Shown here: in pieces, positions 731 through 63,113 of the stretch
Numbering within the stretch: position 1 is the stretch's first letter
Layout: the number at the start of each line of letters is the position of its first letter
Assembly (NCBI GenBank): GCA_021808105.1
Contig: JAKBCC010000001.1
Location: 32,753-96,752, forward strand
From: Planctomycetota bacterium
Lineage (GTDB): Bacteria > Planctomycetota > Phycisphaerae > WQYP01
DNA: 64,000 nt
Direction: 5' to 3'
Translations under genes and position numbers: made by a program
The notes under the pieces: generated by a model
Told to the model about the DNA's origin: nothing
The model's input: the letters and a program-made list of their open reading frames with translations, nothing else
The model's database searches: none

Positions 731-1872
731 CAGCCGACAACCTCCAGCTCCGCCCCAAGGGTGCGAAACGTCTGTTCTTTTTTGATCCCCAGCATCTGAA
801 AAGCGTCGCGATAAAGCGTTTGGCCTTCCAGCGTGCTGGTTACCACGGCGCGAGCGAATCGTCGGCTCAGGCGTGCCGCCTGGGTTAGATAGAAGTTGCC
901 GCCACCGGGTCGCTGTAGCTTCCTTAACCGCTCAACTTCGGCGTCGTATTTAATCTGAAATTGCCCGCGGCTGATGCACTCGGCATCCATAAGGCGGCGC
1001 AGGATGACCAGCGTACTGACCTTGAATACGCGAGCCAGGGCGTCCAACATGGAAAGAGCTTGTCCCGCACCGGTCACTTGCTTTCTCAATTCGACAAGCG
1101 GCACCAGCAGTTCGGCGGCGACTCTGTTACACCACACCTCAACGGCCTGCCCAGCCGGCACCGCCAAGCCTGCGTTGGAAACAGCCGATTCTCCCAGCCA
1201 CAGGTGGGCCAATTCATGCGCCAGCGTAAACATCTGGGCGGCTTTGGTGTCTGCTCCGTTGATGAATACCAGGGGCGCAAGCTTGTCCGCCAGGGCAAAG
1301 CCTCTAAATTCCTGCGGGTCAAGCTTCCGCGTGTTGTTGCTTCCCACGACACCGCTGACCATCACCAGGATGCCGGCGTCTTCGGCTCTCTGAATGAATA
1401 ACCGCAGGGCGTCGCTCCAAGTTGGACACTGCTTGCGGCTGCTGACTCCGAAGCCGAGGACATTTTCGATCTGGGAGGCGGCCTTTTCAGGAGCCGATCG
1501 CACCGTTAACGACCCGATGAAGTTCCGCGGCTCTTCCCCGTTTTCCTGGGCATATTCCTGATACCATGCTTGCCGCCGCTGGCAAAGGTAAACAGTATCC
1601 AGCAAATCCGGGCTGGGTATTGCTACGCCACGTCCCTGGAACGTCCGCAAGTCCGGGATGGGAAGATTTTCCTCAGGCGGTTCATTGAGAAACAGAAACC
1701 CCACGGGCACGCGCGATGCGCGGGCAAAATCCTCCAGTTGCCGAAGCGAAGGCGAAGCGTTTCCTGCCAGCCAGTCCTCCAGTCTTGCAAACTTTCGCTT
1801 AAGCGCGGAAGGATCGCCGGAGCGAATCAAAGCCCATTGCAGTACCTTCGGATTTATGGCGACGCTAGTCAC
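730..1872 (-). CDS. ImmA/IrrE family metallo-endopeptidase with N-terminal XRE-like HTH region
   Basis: HEXXH zinc motif in HELAHLWLGE. The N-terminal 70 aa resemble the HTH part of COG2856 proteins. Translationally coupled to the DUF4411 gene. Confidence 0.75.
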   Translation of the reverse strand: MTSVAINPKVLQWALIRSGDPSALKRKFARLEDWLAGNASPSLRQLEDFARASRVPVGFLFLNEPPEENLPIPDLRTFQGRGVAIPSPDLLDTVYLCQRRQAWYQEYAQENGEEPRNFIGSLTVRSAPEKAASQIENVLGFGVSSRKQCPTWSDALRLFIQRAEDAGILVMVSGVVGSNNTRKLDPQEFRGFALADKLAPLVFINGADTKAAQMFTLAHELAHLWLGESAVSNAGLAVPAGQAVEVWCNRVAAELLVPLVELRKQVTGAGQALSMLDALARVFKVSTLVILRRLMDAECISRGQFQIKYDAEVERLRKLQRPGGGNFYLTQAARLSRRFARAVVTSTLEGQTLYRDAFQMLGIKKEQTFRTLGAELEVVG

Positions 1873-2270
1873 GACGTTGCCCCTTTCAAGGGTTCGGGTT
1901 CAATCATTCTACGCGTTCCATATCGTCTGGGCCGCACTGCCGCGTTTCAATCATTTTTCGGCCTCGCCGATTCAATATGAGTTCAAGTTCAGATCTGGGA
2001 CTGGCCATAAGTGGAAATTGTACGGCAAATTTATTTTCCGGCTAGTGGCGGGAGGATCCCATTCGGGACTCGGCGAGTATCGGCGTATTTAAGGAACCAC
2101 CCGTATTTGTCGGTGCCACCGGCGACCTCAAGCCCAAGCTTGAGGCGTTCGTATTCCCGCCGTGCAAGGCCTAGGGCTTTGCCGACAAGCGGAATGTTAG
2201 CAGGCATAAGATCCGGTGTGGCTGGGCCGAGGTAGTCGATTGATTATCGGTAGATCGTCCACTGCGCGGA

Positions 2271-5798: not shown

Positions 5799-6080
5799 TT
5801 CTCCATCACCCCCAGGGAGCCTGTCCAAGCCATGGCCGGGATTGCGATTACTCGGACGCGCGACTAAGCGCCTCCAACCGGTTGCGTTCCACCACCGGCA
5901 TAGCCGGCGGCTTGTGCGATATTTTTTCGGCCCGGTGTGGGGAGCGACCGGCGTGCCATGCCTGCTATCGTTATTTGCCAAGCTTATTTACTAAGCCGTG
6001 CTTTTTATTCGGGCGGTGGTTATTATACTACGCCGTGTCATCCATTGGGCGTCAATCGCCGGAATTCATGAGGAGCCATT

Positions 6081-9905: not shown

Positions 9906-11156
9906 GTGTCGGTCGGCAGGCCGCGGATCGTTGACCGGCGCGACGAACAGGAGATTCACATGGCCAGGGAATATTCACCTTTCACGCCGGGCGTGCCTGT
10001 TCCCATTGAATTTTTCGCAGGTCGAGAGCGGGAGATCACTGAAATTGTGGACCGCGTGGCAAAGTCCGCGTCAAAAAAAATGATCGAGCGTATCTTCATT
10101 TCCGGGGACCGCGGCATCGGCAAAAGCTCGCTATGCCGCATGGCATTGCGCATTGCGGAGGAGAAACATGAGGTGTTGGGTTTGCATGTATTTCTCGGCG
10201 GCGTGACGTCTTTAGAGGAAATGGTGCGCCGCATATTCGAGCGGCTCTTGCAGGTCAGTCAGGACCGGAGTTGGTTTGAGGGCGTCAAGAAATTTCTGGG
10301 CAATAATGTTCGTGAGGTCGGCCTGTTCGGCGTTTCGCTGGCTTTCGAGGCATCGCCGCGGGACCTGGCGCAAGCCGTAGGGACACTGGGGCCGACGCTG
10401 CAAAAGCTTCTGGCGCAGATCAGCTCTCATCGAAAAGGATTGATGATTGTATTGGATGACCTGAATGGTCTGGCGGCGGATAGAGCGTTCGCCAATTGGC
10501 TTAAAAGCTTTGTGGATGAATTGGCAACCGGCCGCGAGAATCTGCCCCTGACCCTGATACTGGCGGGTATGCCCGAGCGGCGGAGCCAGCTGATTCAGAA
10601 GCAGCCATCGCTCGATCGCGTATTTGATGTTATCAACATAACTGCCTTCAACGAAGCGGAGACGCGACAATTTTATCAACAGGCTCTGGCGAAGGTCAAT
10701 GTGCGTATTTTGCCCGGAGCGCTGGATTTGTTGTGGCGCTTTTCCGGCGGATACCCGGTGTTCCTCCACGAGATTGGTGACGCAGTATTCAAGACTGATA
10801 CCGACGGCGTCATTGACGAAAACGATGCCCTTGCCGGCATAGTCGCGGCGGCGAAGATCATCGGCGTAAAATACATCGAGCCGAAGGTGCTCGATGCCAT
10901 CTGGAGCAAGCGTTACCGGCGGATATTGAAACGGATGGTAATCGCGCCCTTGCAGTTGCATTTTTCCAAAGCTGAACTGGTGGACCGAGTCTCGTCCGAC
11001 GAAGCCAGAGTATTGGATAATTTTCTACAGAAGATGAAACAGTTGGGCGTGGTGCAGCAATCCTCGGAGATGGGACGTGGAAAATACCGCTTTGCCAGCC
11101 AAATTTATGCGTTGTATTTCTATTTGCAGTCAGCGCCCCATCCGACTGCGGACTAG
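9906..11156 (+). CDS. Arch_ATPase/ORC-Cdc6-like P-loop NTPase (orphan)
   Basis: FAGREREITEI followed by Walker A GDRGIGKSS and Walker B MIVLDDLNG. C-terminal alpha-helical region. Lies 28 nt downstream of folA. Confidence 0.65.
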   Translation: MSVGRPRIVDRRDEQEIHMAREYSPFTPGVPVPIEFFAGREREITEIVDRVAKSASKKMIERIFISGDRGIGKSSLCRMALRIAEEKHEVLGLHVFLGGVTSLEEMVRRIFERLLQVSQDRSWFEGVKKFLGNNVREVGLFGVSLAFEASPRDLAQAVGTLGPTLQKLLAQISSHRKGLMIVLDDLNGLAADRAFANWLKSFVDELATGRENLPLTLILAGMPERRSQLIQKQPSLDRVFDVINITAFNEAETRQFYQQALAKVNVRILPGALDLLWRFSGGYPVFLHEIGDAVFKTDTDGVIDENDALAGIVAAAKIIGVKYIEPKVLDAIWSKRYRRILKRMVIAPLQLHFSKAELVDRVSSDEARVLDNFLQKMKQLGVVQQSSEMGRGKYRFASQIYALYFYLQSAPHPTAD

Positions 11157-14408: not shown

Positions 14409-15767
14409 TTATGCAACAGGCGCAGCCGCCTGCCATTCGCGTGGTGTTTCCCAATGCCACATGGTAAATAATCCTACCGCCCAAAGTGCTAACGCGGAAT
14501 ACGTAACCAATCCCAGACCGCGAAGAATATAAAACGGCGGCGGCAGCACCGTCATAATGTGTGAGGCGGCAAAAAAAATCAGCACCCAGCCCAACGCCCC
14601 CCCCAGAGGAAGCATTCGGTCCTGTTCCCAGCGCGCCGCCAGAAGCGCTGTAATCAGGGGCAGCACCATACAGAAATAGTGCGGGTGACAAATGGGAATA
14701 ATCGGCATCATGATGGTGATCAGCACACCAAGGAACAGGTTGCGAAAAATCGGATCATCTTTTCGTCGCATAAATTCCACCAGCAGCGTGATGGCCACAA
14801 GGACAGCCGATATTCCCCAATGCGCCAATTTCATCCATTTTGCCGGGGCCGGGGCGTGGCGGCCAATGTAAAGCGTATGATCAATCATCGCTTCAAAGCT
14901 TGTTGAATCAGTCTTATTAATATCCAAAAGTTCCTTGTCACGGGAAGCGTTATGATTCAATCCAAACGCCGGCTCTAAAACCACTTGCGCAAAACGACGA
15001 TACCCGGCCACCATATGGTGCGGCCCCATGATAATCCCTGGGACAACCAGCAAGCCGGCAACCAACGCCGCCGCCATACCCAGAAGATAAGTTCCCCGCA
15101 GGCGCGATATTCCATAGAGAATTAAAAATCCGGGAAAAACTTTTAACGCTGCCGCCAGACCCGTGGCACATCCGGCCCAGAAGCGTTTTCGGGTGGCCAG
15201 AGCAGCCCCGGCAAAGCAAAACAGCATCAAAAGGACGCTATTGACCTGTCCGCGCACGACCGCCCGGCCAATGGCCGGAAGGCAGATCAATATAGGAATA
15301 ATACGAAGTGCCCACCACCTGCGGCAAAAGCGCGGCATGTTGCGCACGGCGGGATCGGTACACGTTTTTTCCAGGGCTTGCGCCAGCGCGTGGCTCCCCC
15401 ACCAGATACAGGCAATACTGATAAGAAACCAGACCGCCACGGAAACGGGATAGGGCAGTAACCCCGCGCGGCCGAATTTAGCCGGTGCGTCGGCCAGGGG
15501 ATACAAAAGCGTTGCCAGCAGAGGGGGATAATTGTAATGCCAGCCATTGGTATCGGTGACGTTGTAGGGATCTTTGTGCACACGCACGGCCCAGGCGGCG
15601 CGAAAATAGGTGTCAACATCCGTCATTCGTCGGCTAAGAAACGCGGACCGAACTTCCGTAACGCATCCGAAAGCCAGCACGCCGATCAGCAGCGCGATCA
15701 GACCCAAACGTTCAATTTTTGTCAGCGGGTCAAATGGGCCGATCTTCGTGGTGCTGGGTGTCTTCAC
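14409..15767 (-). CDS. DUF2029/GT87-like integral membrane glycosyltransferase
   Basis: About 11 predicted TM helices. An aromatic-rich cytoplasmic loop resembles mannosyltransferase-like GT-C enzymes. Family call is tentative. Confidence 0.45.
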   Translation of the reverse strand: MKTPSTTKIGPFDPLTKIERLGLIALLIGVLAFGCVTEVRSAFLSRRMTDVDTYFRAAWAVRVHKDPYNVTDTNGWHYNYPPLLATLLYPLADAPAKFGRAGLLPYPVSVAVWFLISIACIWWGSHALAQALEKTCTDPAVRNMPRFCRRWWALRIIPILICLPAIGRAVVRGQVNSVLLMLFCFAGAALATRKRFWAGCATGLAAALKVFPGFLILYGISRLRGTYLLGMAAALVAGLLVVPGIIMGPHHMVAGYRRFAQVVLEPAFGLNHNASRDKELLDINKTDSTSFEAMIDHTLYIGRHAPAPAKWMKLAHWGISAVLVAITLLVEFMRRKDDPIFRNLFLGVLITIMMPIIPICHPHYFCMVLPLITALLAARWEQDRMLPLGGALGWVLIFFAASHIMTVLPPPFYILRGLGLVTYSALALWAVGLFTMWHWETPREWQAAAPVA

Positions 15768-16375
15768 AACGGATCCTTATAGTGATTGAGCCGGTCGCTT
15801 CTGAAAAGCCGGCAAGTTTCCCGGCGCACGACACTGCGTGCGGCAACAGTTTTAGCTTGCCGGAGCCATTCCCGCAAATCTTAGAATTGCGCCCATGCGA
15901 TGTCAGGCGGAAGCAGGGCATTGCGTTGCGTATAAGCAGTCCAAGCTGCTACTGCACTAACTTTAGGCACGGGATTATCAGGATGTCGGCCCGCCGTACA
16001 TGCCTATTTTCAACGTCCTATTGATTCTTGAAGCGAGTCTGTCCAATAATCAGGCAAAACGTCCTGCTTTTTCCATATAAAATCCACTTCATAAAATTAT
16101 GGGCCGCAATTGTCCGGAGATTCTCCAAAAAAAATCCGCCGTATGTCGTACTGGCACGAGAGTTGCAATATATCTAACGTGCGGCAAGGACCGCGGGAGT
16201 GACAGAGAATGCAAGAACGTCGAGACCGAAAGAACGTGACGGTGCTCGAATGTGACAAGTAAATATGGATCGTGTATGGCGCAGGCCCGCCGCTTCCCGG
16301 GCACAACGTGGAGGTCTGTGCTGGTGAGATCTGCACCATACACTATCGCTTAAACTCGTTTCCTCCTCCGCCAGG

Positions 16376-16411
16376 CCGTGTGGACCTACCCTCCTCCACA
16401 CGGCTTTTTTA
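16376..16411 (+). terminator. intrinsic terminator-like hairpin (9 bp stem ccgtgtgga/tccacacgg, loop cctaccctcc, then CTTTTTTATT)
   Basis: Perfect 9 bp inverted repeat followed by a T-run on the + strand. No + strand CDS lies upstream within 600 nt. Confidence 0.5.
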
Positions 16412-16413
16412 TT

Positions 16414-16454
16414 GCGCTGAAAACTATTGTACTGAAAACGGCGCTGAAAACTAT
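16414..16454 (+). promoter_or_regulatory. direct repeats GCGCTGAAAACTAT x2 with a third CTGAAAAC, 60 nt upstream of citrate synthase
   Basis: Seen directly at 16414-16427, 16431-16439 and 16441-16454. Confidence 0.4.
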
Positions 16455-16513
16455 ACGATTCCACCCGCAGCGTGTATTATGAGCACCTCTGATGTGCGTT
16501 CAGGAGTAATCGT

Positions 16514-17653
16514 ATGACCCAGACCCCCCTGACTACCGTCGCCGCAACCAGCGGAGGCCTGCGCGACATCGTGGCGTTAAGCTCTTCGATTTGCTCAATT
16601 GAAAACGGCGTGCTCACCTATCGCGGTATTACCATCGACGAACTGGCGGAAAATTCCACGTTTGAAGAAGTGGTATTTTTGCTTTGGAACGCTCGGCTGC
16701 CCACGCGTGCGGAGCTGGACGATTTGCGACAATCGATCGCGGAGCAGGCACTCCTGCCTGAAGGTCTTCTGGCCATGATGAAGTCCTTTCCCCGTCGCAG
16801 CACACCGATGGAAGCTTTGCGCACCGCCGCCAGCGCCATGGCCATGTTTGACGCCGAATCAGAAGATATGTCCGCAGCGGCCAATCAGCGAAAATCCGTG
16901 CGGATTCTGGGCCAGATGGCCGGCGTCGTAGCGGCGTATGATCGTATCCGTAACGACCGCGAACCCCTGGCACCACGGCGCGACTTGAACCTGGCGGCCA
17001 ATTTTTTATACATGCTCACCGGACGTTCACCCGAACCATTGGCCACCCGTGCCCTGGACAAAGCCTATATTCTCCATGCCGATCACGAATTAAATGCCAG
17101 TACCTTCGCGGCGCGCGTCGCGGCGGGGACGCTGACCGATATGCACTCAGCACTGGTCGCCGCCATTTGCGCCTTAAAAGGCCCGCTGCACGGGGGAGCC
17201 AACGAGCAGGTCATGCGGATGCTTAATGAAATCGGCAACCCGGACACCGTGGACGCCTATATCCGGGCCAAGCTGGATAACCATGAAAAAATTATGGGTT
17301 TTGGACACGCGGTATATAAAAACGGTGATCCCCGCGCGCGGCACCTGAAGGAAATGTCACGCCAGCTCGGCACGCTGACCGGGCAGCAGCGCTGGTATGA
17401 AATGTCCGTGCGCATTGAAGACATGGTGGTACGAACCAAAAATCTAAAACCGAATGTCGATTTTTACAGCGCCTCGGTGTACCACTACCTGCACATACCG
17501 GCTGATCTTTTTACCCCGATTTTCGCCATCAGCCGCACCAGCGGATGGATTGCCCACATCCTGGAGCAATATTCGAATAACAAGCTTATCCGACCCCGCG
17601 CGGAATATATCGGGCCGCGCAATCAGCACTGGAAATCCTTTGAATCCCGCTGA
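16514..17653 (+). CDS. gltA: citrate synthase (or 2-methylcitrate synthase)
   Basis: GFGHAVYKNGDPRA and HEL active-site regions. AGGAG ribosome-binding site. Confidence 0.9.
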   Translation: MTQTPLTTVAATSGGLRDIVALSSSICSIENGVLTYRGITIDELAENSTFEEVVFLLWNARLPTRAELDDLRQSIAEQALLPEGLLAMMKSFPRRSTPMEALRTAASAMAMFDAESEDMSAAANQRKSVRILGQMAGVVAAYDRIRNDREPLAPRRDLNLAANFLYMLTGRSPEPLATRALDKAYILHADHELNASTFAARVAAGTLTDMHSALVAAICALKGPLHGGANEQVMRMLNEIGNPDTVDAYIRAKLDNHEKIMGFGHAVYKNGDPRARHLKEMSRQLGTLTGQQRWYEMSVRIEDMVVRTKNLKPNVDFYSASVYHYLHIPADLFTPIFAISRTSGWIAHILEQYSNNKLIRPRAEYIGPRNQHWKSFESR

Positions 17654-24314: not shown

Positions 24315-24430
24315 AGGTGGGGCTTGACGTGGAACACAGCAATCAGGTCGGCACCGTTTGGTTTCTTCCGAACAGTGCGGCACTGCGATTGCTCGCATAG
24401 GCGACGGTAGTCGGTGGTTGTCAGGCGTGT

Positions 24431-25480
24431 TTGCGGGAGTATTTCGTGGGACCGCGTATATCGGTTTGTATCCCGACGCATAACCGTTCGGGTTTACTGC
24501 AGAAGACGCTGAAGAGTCTGGCTGCGGTGGAACCGTGCCCTGATATAACTTGGGAAATCATTGTCGTCGCGAATTGCTGCACAGATGATACGCTGCACGT
24601 CGTCGATGCACTCAAAGAGCACGTACCTGTTAAGTTGTTGATAATCGAAGAAGCGGACCTTGGTGTGGTGGCAGCGCGAAACCGGGCGTTGCGACATGCA
24701 CGCGGCGAGATCATCGCCTTTTTGGATGATGATGTGCTCGTTCGTCCGCTGTGGTTGTGTGAACTTGTAAAAGCTTTTGACTCCCAACCTGATATGCTTG
24801 TGGGCCGGGTTTATCTGGACTGGCATACATTGTCCCGTCCTACTTGGTTTGATGCCGGTATGGGCCAGTATCTCGCGCAGGTTGATCTCGGTGATGTCCC
24901 CATGCTTTTGCAGAATCCATTGGGGGCGGGGGCTAATCTGGCGATTACCCGGGACATGCTGCAACGTATTGGAGGATTCTGCTGTCCGTTGGAGCGCACG
25001 GGTAAACGCACGGCCGGGGAAGATACTGACTTGATAGCTCGAGCGATGCGCGCCAAGGGGCGTGTGCTGTATGCCCCAACCGTGACGGTGGATCACTATG
25101 TAGCGGCGGCAAGATTGACAGTCCGATATCTGAGAGGGGTCGCGTTTGATGTGGGCATGGCGGAGTACCTGATCGCGCCGAGTATCAGCGCAGGTGAACT
25201 GGCGGCAAATCTGGGCAAGAAAATTCCGCGTTTGCTTCAACGATCGGTCCGCTGGCTGCTGGTAGTGCCATTTAATCAGCGGGCGGCGGCTTGTTTGCGC
25301 GTCAGCTTGGCAAAAACACGCGGAAATATTGGGGGAATCATGCTTTGTGCCTGGCGTAGTATGTTGGGGCGCTCGGTGAGGCCGCCCGTTTTCGGAGACT
25401 TGCCCGAGTTGTCGGCCACCATTGCTTCCGGAAATTCAGCGGCTCCGGCGGACCAATTAATGGCCGGTACGCATGGTTAA
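24431..25480 (+). CDS. family 2 glycosyltransferase
   Basis: SVCIPTHNRSG..L..L.S....P......EIIVV.N...D.T and FLDDDVL (DXD). Confidence 0.85.
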   Translation: MREYFVGPRISVCIPTHNRSGLLQKTLKSLAAVEPCPDITWEIIVVANCCTDDTLHVVDALKEHVPVKLLIIEEADLGVVAARNRALRHARGEIIAFLDDDVLVRPLWLCELVKAFDSQPDMLVGRVYLDWHTLSRPTWFDAGMGQYLAQVDLGDVPMLLQNPLGAGANLAITRDMLQRIGGFCCPLERTGKRTAGEDTDLIARAMRAKGRVLYAPTVTVDHYVAAARLTVRYLRGVAFDVGMAEYLIAPSISAGELAANLGKKIPRLLQRSVRWLLVVPFNQRAAACLRVSLAKTRGNIGGIMLCAWRSMLGRSVRPPVFGDLPELSATIASGNSAAPADQLMAGTHG

Positions 25481-61477: not shown

Positions 61478-62992
61478 TCACACGCCGGCGGCCCGTTGCC
61501 GCACGGTGTGCCAAAGCGCCAGAAGCTCTGTATTATAAAACCATATAGATAAAGCTGTGTAAATCAGTAAGAACGAAACGGTCCCGCATACGATATTCTC
61601 CCATACGGGAAGCGTAATGGGGGCCGCCAGAAGCCTTACACCGATCCACGGTGCGGCCGCGGCCATCGCCATGGCCGCCGGACGCAGAAATAATGCCGCC
61701 ACATCGCCCCAAGTTCCGCCGCCCGGCCCAATGGCTTGTCGCACCAGCAGGGGGGCGGCAACGGCCCAGAAAATACTCACCGCAAGGGCGAGAATCACGG
61801 CACCCCCGGCCCACGCGGCAAACAACGCCAGCGGTAGATACACCAGGGCACTGCCTGTGGCCCAGGCGAGTTGGAATCTGAAGCGGCCTTGCGCCAAAAT
61901 GAAATTCAACGATGGCTCCACCAGTAGCATAAACGCTGCGCCTAACGACAGGACTTCCAGCGGCAGAATCGCCGCGTGCCATTTGTTGCCATAAACCAAT
62001 GTCAGCAGAGGCCGGGCCAGCAGTGATTCCAGCACGCACAGCGGCATACCGGCCAATGCCACAAGGTTGGCAGCCCGGAGAAACGCGGCGGTCTGCCGAT
62101 TGATCTGATTCTCCATGGACGTAAGAGCCGGATACAGCACTCCGGCAACATTGGTCGAAAATACCTGACTGATCTGCGTGGATAAATTGGACGCGAAAAA
62201 ATAATCGCCGACGATTGTCACGGAAGCAAAGGCCCGCAGACACGACATTTCGGCAATTCGGCTTACAGTTTGAAATACTACCGCGCCCATCAGCAGGCCC
62301 GACTTTTCAATCAGGTAAGGCCAGCGGCGAAAGTGTGCATGGAGCTTAATGCGCGTAGGAGCCGCCATCCACAGGGCAATCGCCCGCAGCGCTCCCACCA
62401 CGGGCAGGGGAATGACAAAACTGTAGACTCCCCAGCCCAGCGCCGCCAGCACAATGCTAAGTACCATGGCGATGATGTTATAACCCAGGCCAATCATGGC
62501 CAATTCGCGGAATCGCATATCCTGCATGAGCCGTGCGGTGGGCACCGCGAATAACGCGGTGATGGCGACGCCGGGCGCAATGATGTCCATAATGGGAATT
62601 AACTGCGGCGCGTGAAAGGCCGCCGCTGCGTAGGGTGCCGCCAGCAGCATCAGCAAGCCGGCGGCCATTCCCAGCGCGATTTCCATCCAGAATGCTGGTG
62701 TAGCCCAACGTTTGAAACTTCGCCGCTTTTGCACCAGGATTTGCGGCATGCCGGATTGCCGAAGAATATTAGGAATCGCTGCGGCCGCATACGCCAGCCC
62801 GACCAGCCCGAAATCGTGCGGCACCAGCAGACGCGCCAGAATAATCTGGCCGATGAAACCAAAGCTTTTGGATGCCAGCGTCTGAAAAATCATCCATGCC
62901 ACGCCGCCGAGGCTGCGTCGCGCAATGGGCGAAGCCGTTGCCGGACCGTCGCCAGCGGGGGACTGTGCCTTGTTTTCAGGTGTGTGCATCAC
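61478..62992 (-). CDS. MOP-superfamily polysaccharide flippase (Wzx-like)
   Basis: About 12 to 14 TM helices. N-terminal GFIGQIILARLL resembles PST/Wzx family proteins. Confidence 0.6.
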   Translation of the reverse strand: MMHTPENKAQSPAGDGPATASPIARRSLGGVAWMIFQTLASKSFGFIGQIILARLLVPHDFGLVGLAYAAAAIPNILRQSGMPQILVQKRRSFKRWATPAFWMEIALGMAAGLLMLLAAPYAAAAFHAPQLIPIMDIIAPGVAITALFAVPTARLMQDMRFRELAMIGLGYNIIAMVLSIVLAALGWGVYSFVIPLPVVGALRAIALWMAAPTRIKLHAHFRRWPYLIEKSGLLMGAVVFQTVSRIAEMSCLRAFASVTIVGDYFFASNLSTQISQVFSTNVAGVLYPALTSMENQINRQTAAFLRAANLVALAGMPLCVLESLLARPLLTLVYGNKWHAAILPLEVLSLGAAFMLLVEPSLNFILAQGRFRFQLAWATGSALVYLPLALFAAWAGGAVILALAVSIFWAVAAPLLVRQAIGPGGGTWGDVAALFLRPAAMAMAAAAPWIGVRLLAAPITLPVWENIVCGTVSFLLIYTALSIWFYNTELLALWHTVRQRAAGV

Positions 62993-63113
62993 ATTTCAGA
63001 CCCATCGCAATCCCGGCCATCACTCGGACAGGCTTTTAGTGCTCGCATCGGATAGTATCATAAACCAGTCCGGTTGGCTTGGGGAATTTCCGTGGTATCC
63101 TGCCGATGAAATC

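Follow-up and report, generated by a model that had tools for sequence, protein, structure and literature searches.

A candidate sigma-54-type gene for a structured non-coding RNA with anti-Shine-Dalgarno motifs in Phycisphaerae

In a Planctomycetota bacterium of the class Phycisphaerae, a conserved non-coding unit lies between a GT87-family membrane glycosyltransferase gene and the citrate synthase gene, gltA. It occupies positions 16152-16411 of a 64-kb stretch of contig JAKBCC010000001.1, which was analysed as a whole and is hereafter called the window. The explanation that we favour, at slightly better than even chances, is that the unit is a stand-alone gene for a ~234-nt structured non-coding RNA, a small RNA (sRNA) that would depend on sigma-54 and probably act in trans. 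An earlier reading made from the sequence alone (the sequence-only reading) had proposed a candidate small RNA, or an attenuator or leader of gltA, at 16290-16460. That interval covers the 3' half of the conserved unit and misses the rest. The proposal of a candidate small RNA held: the unit is independent, conserved and non-coding and has its own terminator.

A conserved promoter-to-terminator unit

The unit was compared in eight homologues, the window and seven other loci on distinct Phycisphaerae contigs (L001-L003, L201, L205, L214 and L218). These were found by alignment of the gap (L001-L003, then L201 and L205) and through protein relatives of citrate synthase and GT87. Its boundaries are marked by the following features.

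16152-16167, plus strand: sigma-54-type (-24/-12) promoter TGGCACGAGAGTTGCA, with GG at 16153-16154 and GC at 16165-16166
16177-16411, plus strand: predicted primary transcript, ~234 nt, non-coding, from the conserved start to the T-run in eight loci
16373-16411, plus strand: intrinsic terminator with a 12-bp stem, a 10-nt loop and U6

On the 5' side of the non-coding unit, CTGGCACG-AGAG-TTGCA (16151-16167) presents a -24 GG and a -12 GC at canonical spacing. The pattern TGGCAC-N5-TTGCW, with zero mismatches, has this single site in the 64 kb, where 0.17 would be expected. From the position of the -12 GC, the start of transcription is predicted at ~16177-16179, and this coincides with the onset of sequence conservation, 11-17 nt 3' of the promoter element. 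All eight lineages retain CTGGCA(C/T)-N5-TTGC between flanks that cannot be aligned. An insertion has displaced it in L001, and the other seven have it in position.

On the 3' side, a perfect 10-bp stem, GCCGTGTGGA/TCCACACGGC (16375-16384 / 16395-16404), reaches 12 bp when G-U and A-U pairs are counted (16373/16406). It closes the 10-nt loop CCTACCCTCC (16385-16394; CCUACCCUCC) and is followed by T6 at 16405-16410. The predicted free energy of the hairpin is -19.9 kcal/mol. A perfect stem of at least 9 bp followed by T5 is found only here on both strands of the window, and not once in 50 shuffles. The standard terminator scan overlooks this hairpin, its loop limit being 8 nt. The hairpin and T-run had been described as lacking an upstream plus-strand gene. 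This is confirmed, as the adjoining gene (14409-15767) is on the minus strand. Canonical intrinsic terminators are very rare in the window, at 1 per 64 kb.

In the alignment of the gap with L001-L003, L201 and L205, the block 16178-16411 is nearly invariant, and the remainder is poorly conserved or unalignable. The 3' domain of the RNA (156 nt) is 90-98% identical to the window and the 5' domain 59-94%. In the neighbouring GT87 gene, by comparison, identity at four-fold degenerate sites is 37-61%. The difference between the 3' domain and these sites shows that the non-coding sequence is under strong purifying selection.

No conserved open reading frame (ORF) was found in any of the six frames, across four and then all eight homologues. 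A minus-strand ORF of 96 residues (16174-16464) is not conserved and is broken by a 1-nt deletion and frameshift in L003. On the plus strand, a 17-codon ORF, MQERRDRKNVTVLECDK, begins with an ATG at 16209, 9 nt after a GGGAG. The good spacing to this ribosome-binding-site-like sequence and an ORF length kept in the window, L001-L003 and L205 might point to a small-protein gene or a dual-function RNA. However, the start is ATG in only two homologues and GTG in four, L214 and L218 have AGG and hence no start codon, and L201 has an in-frame TAA after nine codons. Moreover, the variable positions are accounted for by compensatory changes in hairpin P2 of the RNA, described below. A coding role is thus essentially refuted.

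Fold of the RNA and its C/U-rich motifs

From 5' to 3', the predicted RNA contains the following elements ahead of and within the terminator (SD, Shine-Dalgarno).

16181-16194, plus strand: hairpin P1, GCGG-CAAGGA-CCGC, stem kept in all eight homologues, loop variable
16195-16211, plus strand: purine-rich SD-like tract GGGAGUGACAGAGAAUG (GGGAG...AGAG), predicted to pair with the CCUCCUCC of the linker
16220-16249, plus strand: hairpin P2, UCGAG-ACCG ... CGGU-G-CUCGA, covarying
16250-16267, plus strand: A/U-rich single-stranded junction AUGUGACAAGUAAAUAUG, near-invariant in all eight
16268-16347, plus strand: P3, an irregular rod of 80 nt formed by an inverted repeat, with CUUCCC and GGAGG motifs
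16348-16372, plus strand: linker UUUCCUCCUCCGCC with anti-SD motif 1, CCUCCUCC at 16362-16369
Terminator loop, plus strand: anti-SD motif 2, ACCCUCCUCC, with CCUCCUCC at 16390-16397

All eight homologues fold on this common plan of P1, purine tract, P2, junction, P3, linker and terminator. In the MAFFT alignment 96.6% of cells are paired, against 32-48% in slid controls. The covariation score of 0.103 exceeds the 0.080 of shuffles and was reached by 4 in 500 of them. P1 shows one compensatory change, from C-G to U-A in L214. The stem of P2 is rewritten in L201, L205, L214 and L218 and still folds in place (-12 to -19 kcal/mol), with double compensatory changes in two columns. In P3, 29 pairs are 97-99% paired; the sequence is almost invariant and the changes are one-sided only (G-U/A-U/G-C). 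The fold of the 3' half has a z score of -3.4. Five G-U positions in the helices are compatible with the plus strand only.

The A/U-rich junction is a possible processing site. A transcript of 100-130 nt had been expected by the sequence-only reading. The predicted primary transcript is longer, and a product of that size could be a processed 3' fragment.

C/U-rich anti-SD-like motifs had been pointed out before and in the hairpin loop. They are indeed present, and both CCUCCUCC motifs are invariant in the eight homologues. The two copies are packed into 36 nt, with TTTCCTCCTCCGCC at 16359-16372. For the shorter CCTCCTCC, 1.28 occurrences would be expected in the window; there are three, two of them (16362 and 16390) 28 nt apart. 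Equally invariant are AAACUCGUUUCCUCCUCCGCCA in the linker, the CUUCCC motif, and ACCCUCC in the loop, where only the first two bases vary (CC or UA). Of the two CCUCCUCC copies and the CUUCCC, the motif in the terminator loop is the only one predicted to be accessible, ACCCUCC being 100% unpaired in the ensemble folds of all eight homologues.

The CCUCC of the linker forms a long-range helix with the GGGAG tract in the minimum free energy folds of all eight homologues and in the consensus folds. No covariation was found for this helix. By prediction, the RNA's own 5' GGGAG tract would mask the linker seed. In L201, an extra 20-nt copy of the purine-rich module (CAGAGUGAUAGAGGGUGUUA) is found at 2691-2710, in the 5' domain of the RNA. 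It suggests that the gene tolerates duplication of the SD-like tract.

Independence from citrate synthase

The gap and its surroundings are organized as follows.

14409-15767, minus strand: GT87-family membrane glycosyltransferase gene, left neighbour of the gap
15768-16513: intergenic gap of 746 nt separating the two divergent genes
16414-16440, plus strand: 27-nt tandem duplication GCGCTGAAAACTATTGTACTGAAAACG, window-specific and outside the RNA
16451-16480, plus strand: gltA promoter-like motif CTATACGA-N12-CGTGTATTAT, between terminator and gltA
16502-16506, plus strand: SD sequence AGGAG of gltA
16514-17653, plus strand: gltA (citrate synthase), ATG at 16514

The window has a G+C content of 55%. 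Its assignment to Phycisphaerae agrees with the nearest citrate synthase loci among one-genome-per-species GTDB contigs, which are metagenome-assembled genomes (MAGs) of that class. Amino-acid identity of citrate synthase to the window is 97-98% in L001-L003, 83% in L004 and 75-76% in L005 and L006. Relatives at 87% and 97% (L201/L202, L205) carry the element. It is absent from L004 and from relatives at ~80% (L207-L212), where the gap measures just ~90-150 nt and lies beside miaA. On the GT87 side, relatives at 82-83% identity (L214 and L218) have the element divergently upstream of GT87, and those at 63-70% have other neighbours and no element.

In six of the eight loci the RNA lies directly 5' of gltA and is co-oriented with it. 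Any intrinsic terminator may leak some read-through, so that the RNA could be a cis-acting leader or attenuator whose conditional read-through by sigma-54 transcripts gives gltA a second regulated input. We regard this as very unlikely. Neither L214 nor L218 has gltA downstream: an IS66-type transposase follows the element in L214, and in L218 it is separated by ~1.1 kb free of ORFs from an OEP gene. Conversely, gltA relatives at 75-83% identity have different neighbours and lack the element. The gltA promoter-like motif stands 3' of the terminator and recurs 5' of gltA in L004, L207, L210 and L211, all without the RNA. CTAYRCGA-N12-16-TGTGTATTAT is conserved 5' of gltA with and without the RNA, as a sequence motif only. 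Finally, the terminator stem is strong and invariant, and no alternative antiterminator pairing was noted. The attenuator proposal of the sequence-only reading is rejected on these grounds. The CCUCC elements, whose conservation upstream of gltA in relatives it had named as a check, are invariant in the eight homologues and missing from the gltA relatives at 75-83%.

In L214, the IS66-family-like transposase ORFs (991-2036, minus strand of the locus) lie directly 3' of the RNA homologue, on a contig with N runs. This may account for the lost adjacency to gltA in that lineage.

Searches by nhmmer and with a covariance model built on the 3' domain gave no extra copies of the element in the window or in 22 related loci. 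Within 214 kb of related sequence, the covariance model retrieved exactly the eight known copies. A metagenome search with CCTCCTCC-N14-26-CCTCCTCC-N4-12-TTTTT gave no related sequence among the 120 matches listed, which are dominated by CCT low-complexity repeats. Since L214 and L218 keep the RNA without gltA, and the model finds only eight copies, the RNA gene appears to be stand-alone and, so far as sampled, limited to a narrow clade. The proximity to citrate synthase reflects incidental synteny in this clade, not cis-regulation.

Three CTGAAAAC-containing direct repeats at 16410-16451 had been noticed in the sequence-only reading and suggested as a possible regulator-binding site. The repeats are real and were created by the 27-nt duplication, which copies part of the stretch just 5' of the gltA promoter-like motif. 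The regulatory interpretation falls because the duplication is present in the window only: it is absent from L001, L002, L003, L201 and L205, and all seven relatives carry a single GCGCTGAAAACTAT copy.

Predicted pairing of the two seeds with the 47 initiation regions of the window does not single out either neighbour. The gltA region ranks 18th with the linker seed and 31st with the loop seed; the GT87 region ranks 31st and 45th, and pairing with either mRNA was rejected. The top match is the initiation region of a DUF4411 gene (GGGGCGGAGCUGGAGG), with the linker seed at -22 kcal/mol, and is probably due to chance. Whole-length duplex prediction returned meaningless long duplexes and was set aside. 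At 233-1872 on the minus strand, the DUF4411 gene follows one for an ImmA/IrrE-type metallopeptidase (Peptidase_M78); together they resemble a toxin-antitoxin or defence pair. A STAND/AAA_16 NTPase (nSTAND1-like) gene at 9906-11156 on the plus strand is another possible conflict-system component.

Comparison with known RNA families

Rfam 15 at gathering thresholds gave no match in the window or in the seven homologous loci, so that the Rfam scan that the sequence-only reading had proposed assigns the RNA to no family. A permissive search returned sub-threshold scores only: 15.4 bits for ar14 (gathering 58.8), 16.1 for sX13 (50) and 21.1 for the trpB motif (59). These scores are explained by the C-rich terminator. 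RsaE (RF01820) had no match in 15600-16700 even at E<=10.

The cuckoo/alpha-r14 sRNAs of Alphaproteobacteria (CcsR/RSs0680 and SmelC397 = NfeR1; ar14, RF02344) are trans-encoded, and a repeated CCUCCUCC(C) anti-SD motif is their only strongly conserved feature. Like the window RNA, they carry at least one copy of the motif in a hairpin loop and end at an intrinsic terminator. They have been proposed or shown to act by occluding ribosome-binding sites (PMC4615179, PMC10746234). The family is defined by two to four adjacent similar hairpins with CCUCCUCCC in each loop (PMC4615179). This architecture is not that of the window RNA, in which the motif is found in a single hairpin, the terminator, shared between loop and stem, and in a linker copy predicted to be paired. 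Other differences are the base following CCUCCUCC (G or A), an unrelated 180-nt 5' body and the phylum; the sub-threshold ar14 match covers the terminator only. NfeR1 is driven by sigma-70 and LsrB with NtrC as a repressor, whereas the promoter of the window RNA is of the sigma-54 type.

An analogy with RsaE/RoxS had been drawn in the sequence-only reading. RsaE/RoxS is a Firmicutes family, and RsaE lowers mRNAs of the tricarboxylic acid cycle (PMC4409812, PMC6158497). As a mechanism the analogy is reasonable; in RsaE/RoxS, several unpaired C-rich motifs pair with G-rich SD regions. Family membership and the suggested link to gltA do not follow. Compared with the RNAs of Bacillales, the window RNA is about twice as long, belongs to a planctomycete and has no Rfam match. 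RsaE/RoxS is controlled by ResD, SrrA and Rex, as opposed to the putative sigma-54 control here, and no preferential pairing with citrate synthase mRNA is predicted.

Sigma-54-dependent sRNA genes of Proteobacteria include those for Qrr1-5, GlmY and CrcZ. NrsZ, which depends on sigma-54 and NtrC (PMC4253122), is processed into shorter active units. The window locus resembles these stand-alone non-coding genes in its -24/-12 promoter and intrinsic terminator. It has no sequence or structure similarity to them and comes from another phylum, and its own sigma-54 dependence is suggested by sequence. The sX13 RNA of Xanthomonadaceae (RF02232) also has C-rich loop motifs on stem-loops, aimed at G-rich mRNA leaders; its CCCC loops are carried by three hairpins, size and phylum differ, and the score is far below the gathering threshold. 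On the best reading, by analogy, the window RNA would act like cuckoo/alpha-r14 and RsaE/RoxS and belong to neither, as a new family of familiar design.

The spacer between GT87 and the promoter

Two further features lie upstream of the promoter.

16040-16059, plus strand: conserved motif TGTCCAATAAT-CAGGCAAAA, ~110-135 nt 5' of the promoter
16127-16134, plus strand: A8 tract, ~20 nt 5' of the -24 element

GTCCAATAAT is found in the window, L001-L003, L201 and L205 and is degenerate in L214 and L218; the surrounding spacer has diverged. The motif could be a site for a bacterial enhancer-binding protein or a divergent GT87 promoter element. An A-rich tract occupies the equivalent place in the window, L001, L002, L201 and L205 and is weaker in L214 and L218; it is possibly an intrinsic bend or an IHF-type region. 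Closer to GT87, an (A/T)TTAGGCA motif (15958-15968 in the window) recurs between GT87 and the RNA in every lineage, L214 and L218 among them (TTTAGGCATTGCAAT). It is a candidate GT87 promoter element or enhancer site. Elsewhere in the window, a sigma-54-like site with one mismatch, CGGCACTGCGATTGCT (24378-24393), lies 38 nt 5' of a family-2 glycosyltransferase gene (24431-25480) and is a possible second sigma-54 promoter.

The insertion in L001 (MAG WY1.bin60; 1985-2263) has 36-nt terminal inverted repeats with 83% identity, and the RNA downstream is intact. Its ends match window positions 62991-63034 and 5813-5848 (91% over 44 nt; 85%), and at one of these two places a polysaccharide-biosynthesis gene starts. 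The insertion appears to belong to a repeat family of the genus, resembling miniature inverted-repeat transposable elements (MITE-like) or repetitive extragenic palindromes (REP-like).

GT87 adjoins the element in every locus, and mobile DNA lies near two of them (the MITE-like insertion in L001 and IS66 in L214). A conserved element acting at the DNA level, either regulatory DNA of GT87 or a mobile-element remnant with no functional RNA, would fit these observations. We nevertheless rate it as highly improbable. The promoter-to-terminator layout, the G-U pairs specific to the plus strand and the compensatory changes in P1 and P2 are unexpected for a DNA-binding region. Conservation is bounded by the predicted start and the T-run, and ~214 kb of related sequence holds no second copy.

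Discussion

In the mechanism that we propose, sigma-54 holoenzyme and an enhancer-binding protein would start transcription near 16178, and transcription would end at the hairpin and U6 (16373-16410). The resulting RNA would have a variable 5' domain (P1, purine tract, P2) and an almost invariant 3' domain, made of P3, the linker with UUUCCUCCUCC and a terminator loop displaying ACCCUCCUCC. By analogy with sRNAs whose anti-SD motifs block ribosome-binding sites (PMC4615179, PMC10746234, PMC6158497), the RNA would most likely pair in trans with mRNAs, its C/U-rich motifs binding ribosome-binding sites of the GGAG type and so preventing initiation of translation. The terminator loop would be a constitutively exposed seed. 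In this model the 5' GGGAG tract covers the linker seed, which would become available once the RNA has been remodelled or processed.

Several observations weigh against this proposal. Neither the window nor the related loci examined contain an rpoN gene, a gene for an enhancer-binding protein, a GAFTGA motif or an RpoN-box. The presence of sigma-54 in the host is therefore taken from the literature on the class, where sigma-54 promoters were predicted in Planctomycetota including Phycisphaerae (PMC12316311). In L001, the insertion puts ~280 nt between promoter and RNA. Ensemble calculations leave the motif of the linker seed just 18-35% unpaired, so that this seed would be base-paired for the most part. 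Structural support is real but thin: the eight homologues are fairly close and yield three double-change pairs in all, the RNA being invariant over most of its length. The scan of the 47 initiation regions in the window was uninformative and found no target. Last, the near-invariance of P3 exceeds what pairing seeds or helix upkeep need and hints at recognition by a protein.

It is this extreme conservation of P3 that keeps alive the main rival, a protein-binding or sequestering RNA serving as decoy or scaffold, in which P3 and the C/U-rich motifs would be recognised by an RNA-binding protein or by the 30S subunit. The primary sequence of the 3' domain is conserved far above the need for helix maintenance, P3 is nearly free of covariation since it hardly varies, and SD-like (GGGAG, GGAGG) and anti-SD-like motifs are united in one RNA. 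Yet no repeated protein-binding motif is evident and no gene for a partner protein is linked, and two identical copies of CCUCCUCC are what pairing seeds classically look like. A CsrA-type sponge was considered and rejected, because the GGA of the P1 loop changes between homologues (CAAGGA / CGAAGA / CAGCGA). Overall we find a protein-binding role unlikely and keep to the trans-acting sRNA.

A more speculative idea, which we hold to be rather unlikely, casts the RNA as a self-masked mimic of the 3' end of 16S rRNA, with its two anti-SD cores held in check by the internal GGGAG (16195) and by the GGAGG of P3. If so, a signal activating sigma-54, together with remodelling or processing at the A/U-rich junction, would expose the motifs and let them titrate strong-SD mRNAs globally. 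The RNA would then be a switch for a class of translation and not a gene-specific regulator, strong-SD mRNAs being a minority (~1/3 of crudely called starts). GGAG, GAGG or AGGA is found upstream of about one third of the gene starts, crudely called. This proportion and the rarity of terminators are relevant to the action that an anti-SD RNA would have in this host.

Regulatory RNAs of Planctomycetota are almost uncharted, and our literature search found no paper describing an sRNA in the phylum. With its rare canonical terminator, strong purifying selection and obvious candidate seed, the locus offers a clean and testable candidate. For annotation, it corrects the tempting but mistaken assignment of the element as a regulator of the neighbouring citrate synthase gene. 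The type of promoter would imply that expression depends on a signal. A design with anti-SD seeds, seen in Alphaproteobacteria, Xanthomonas and Firmicutes and predicted here, may thus have arisen in a further, distant phylum.

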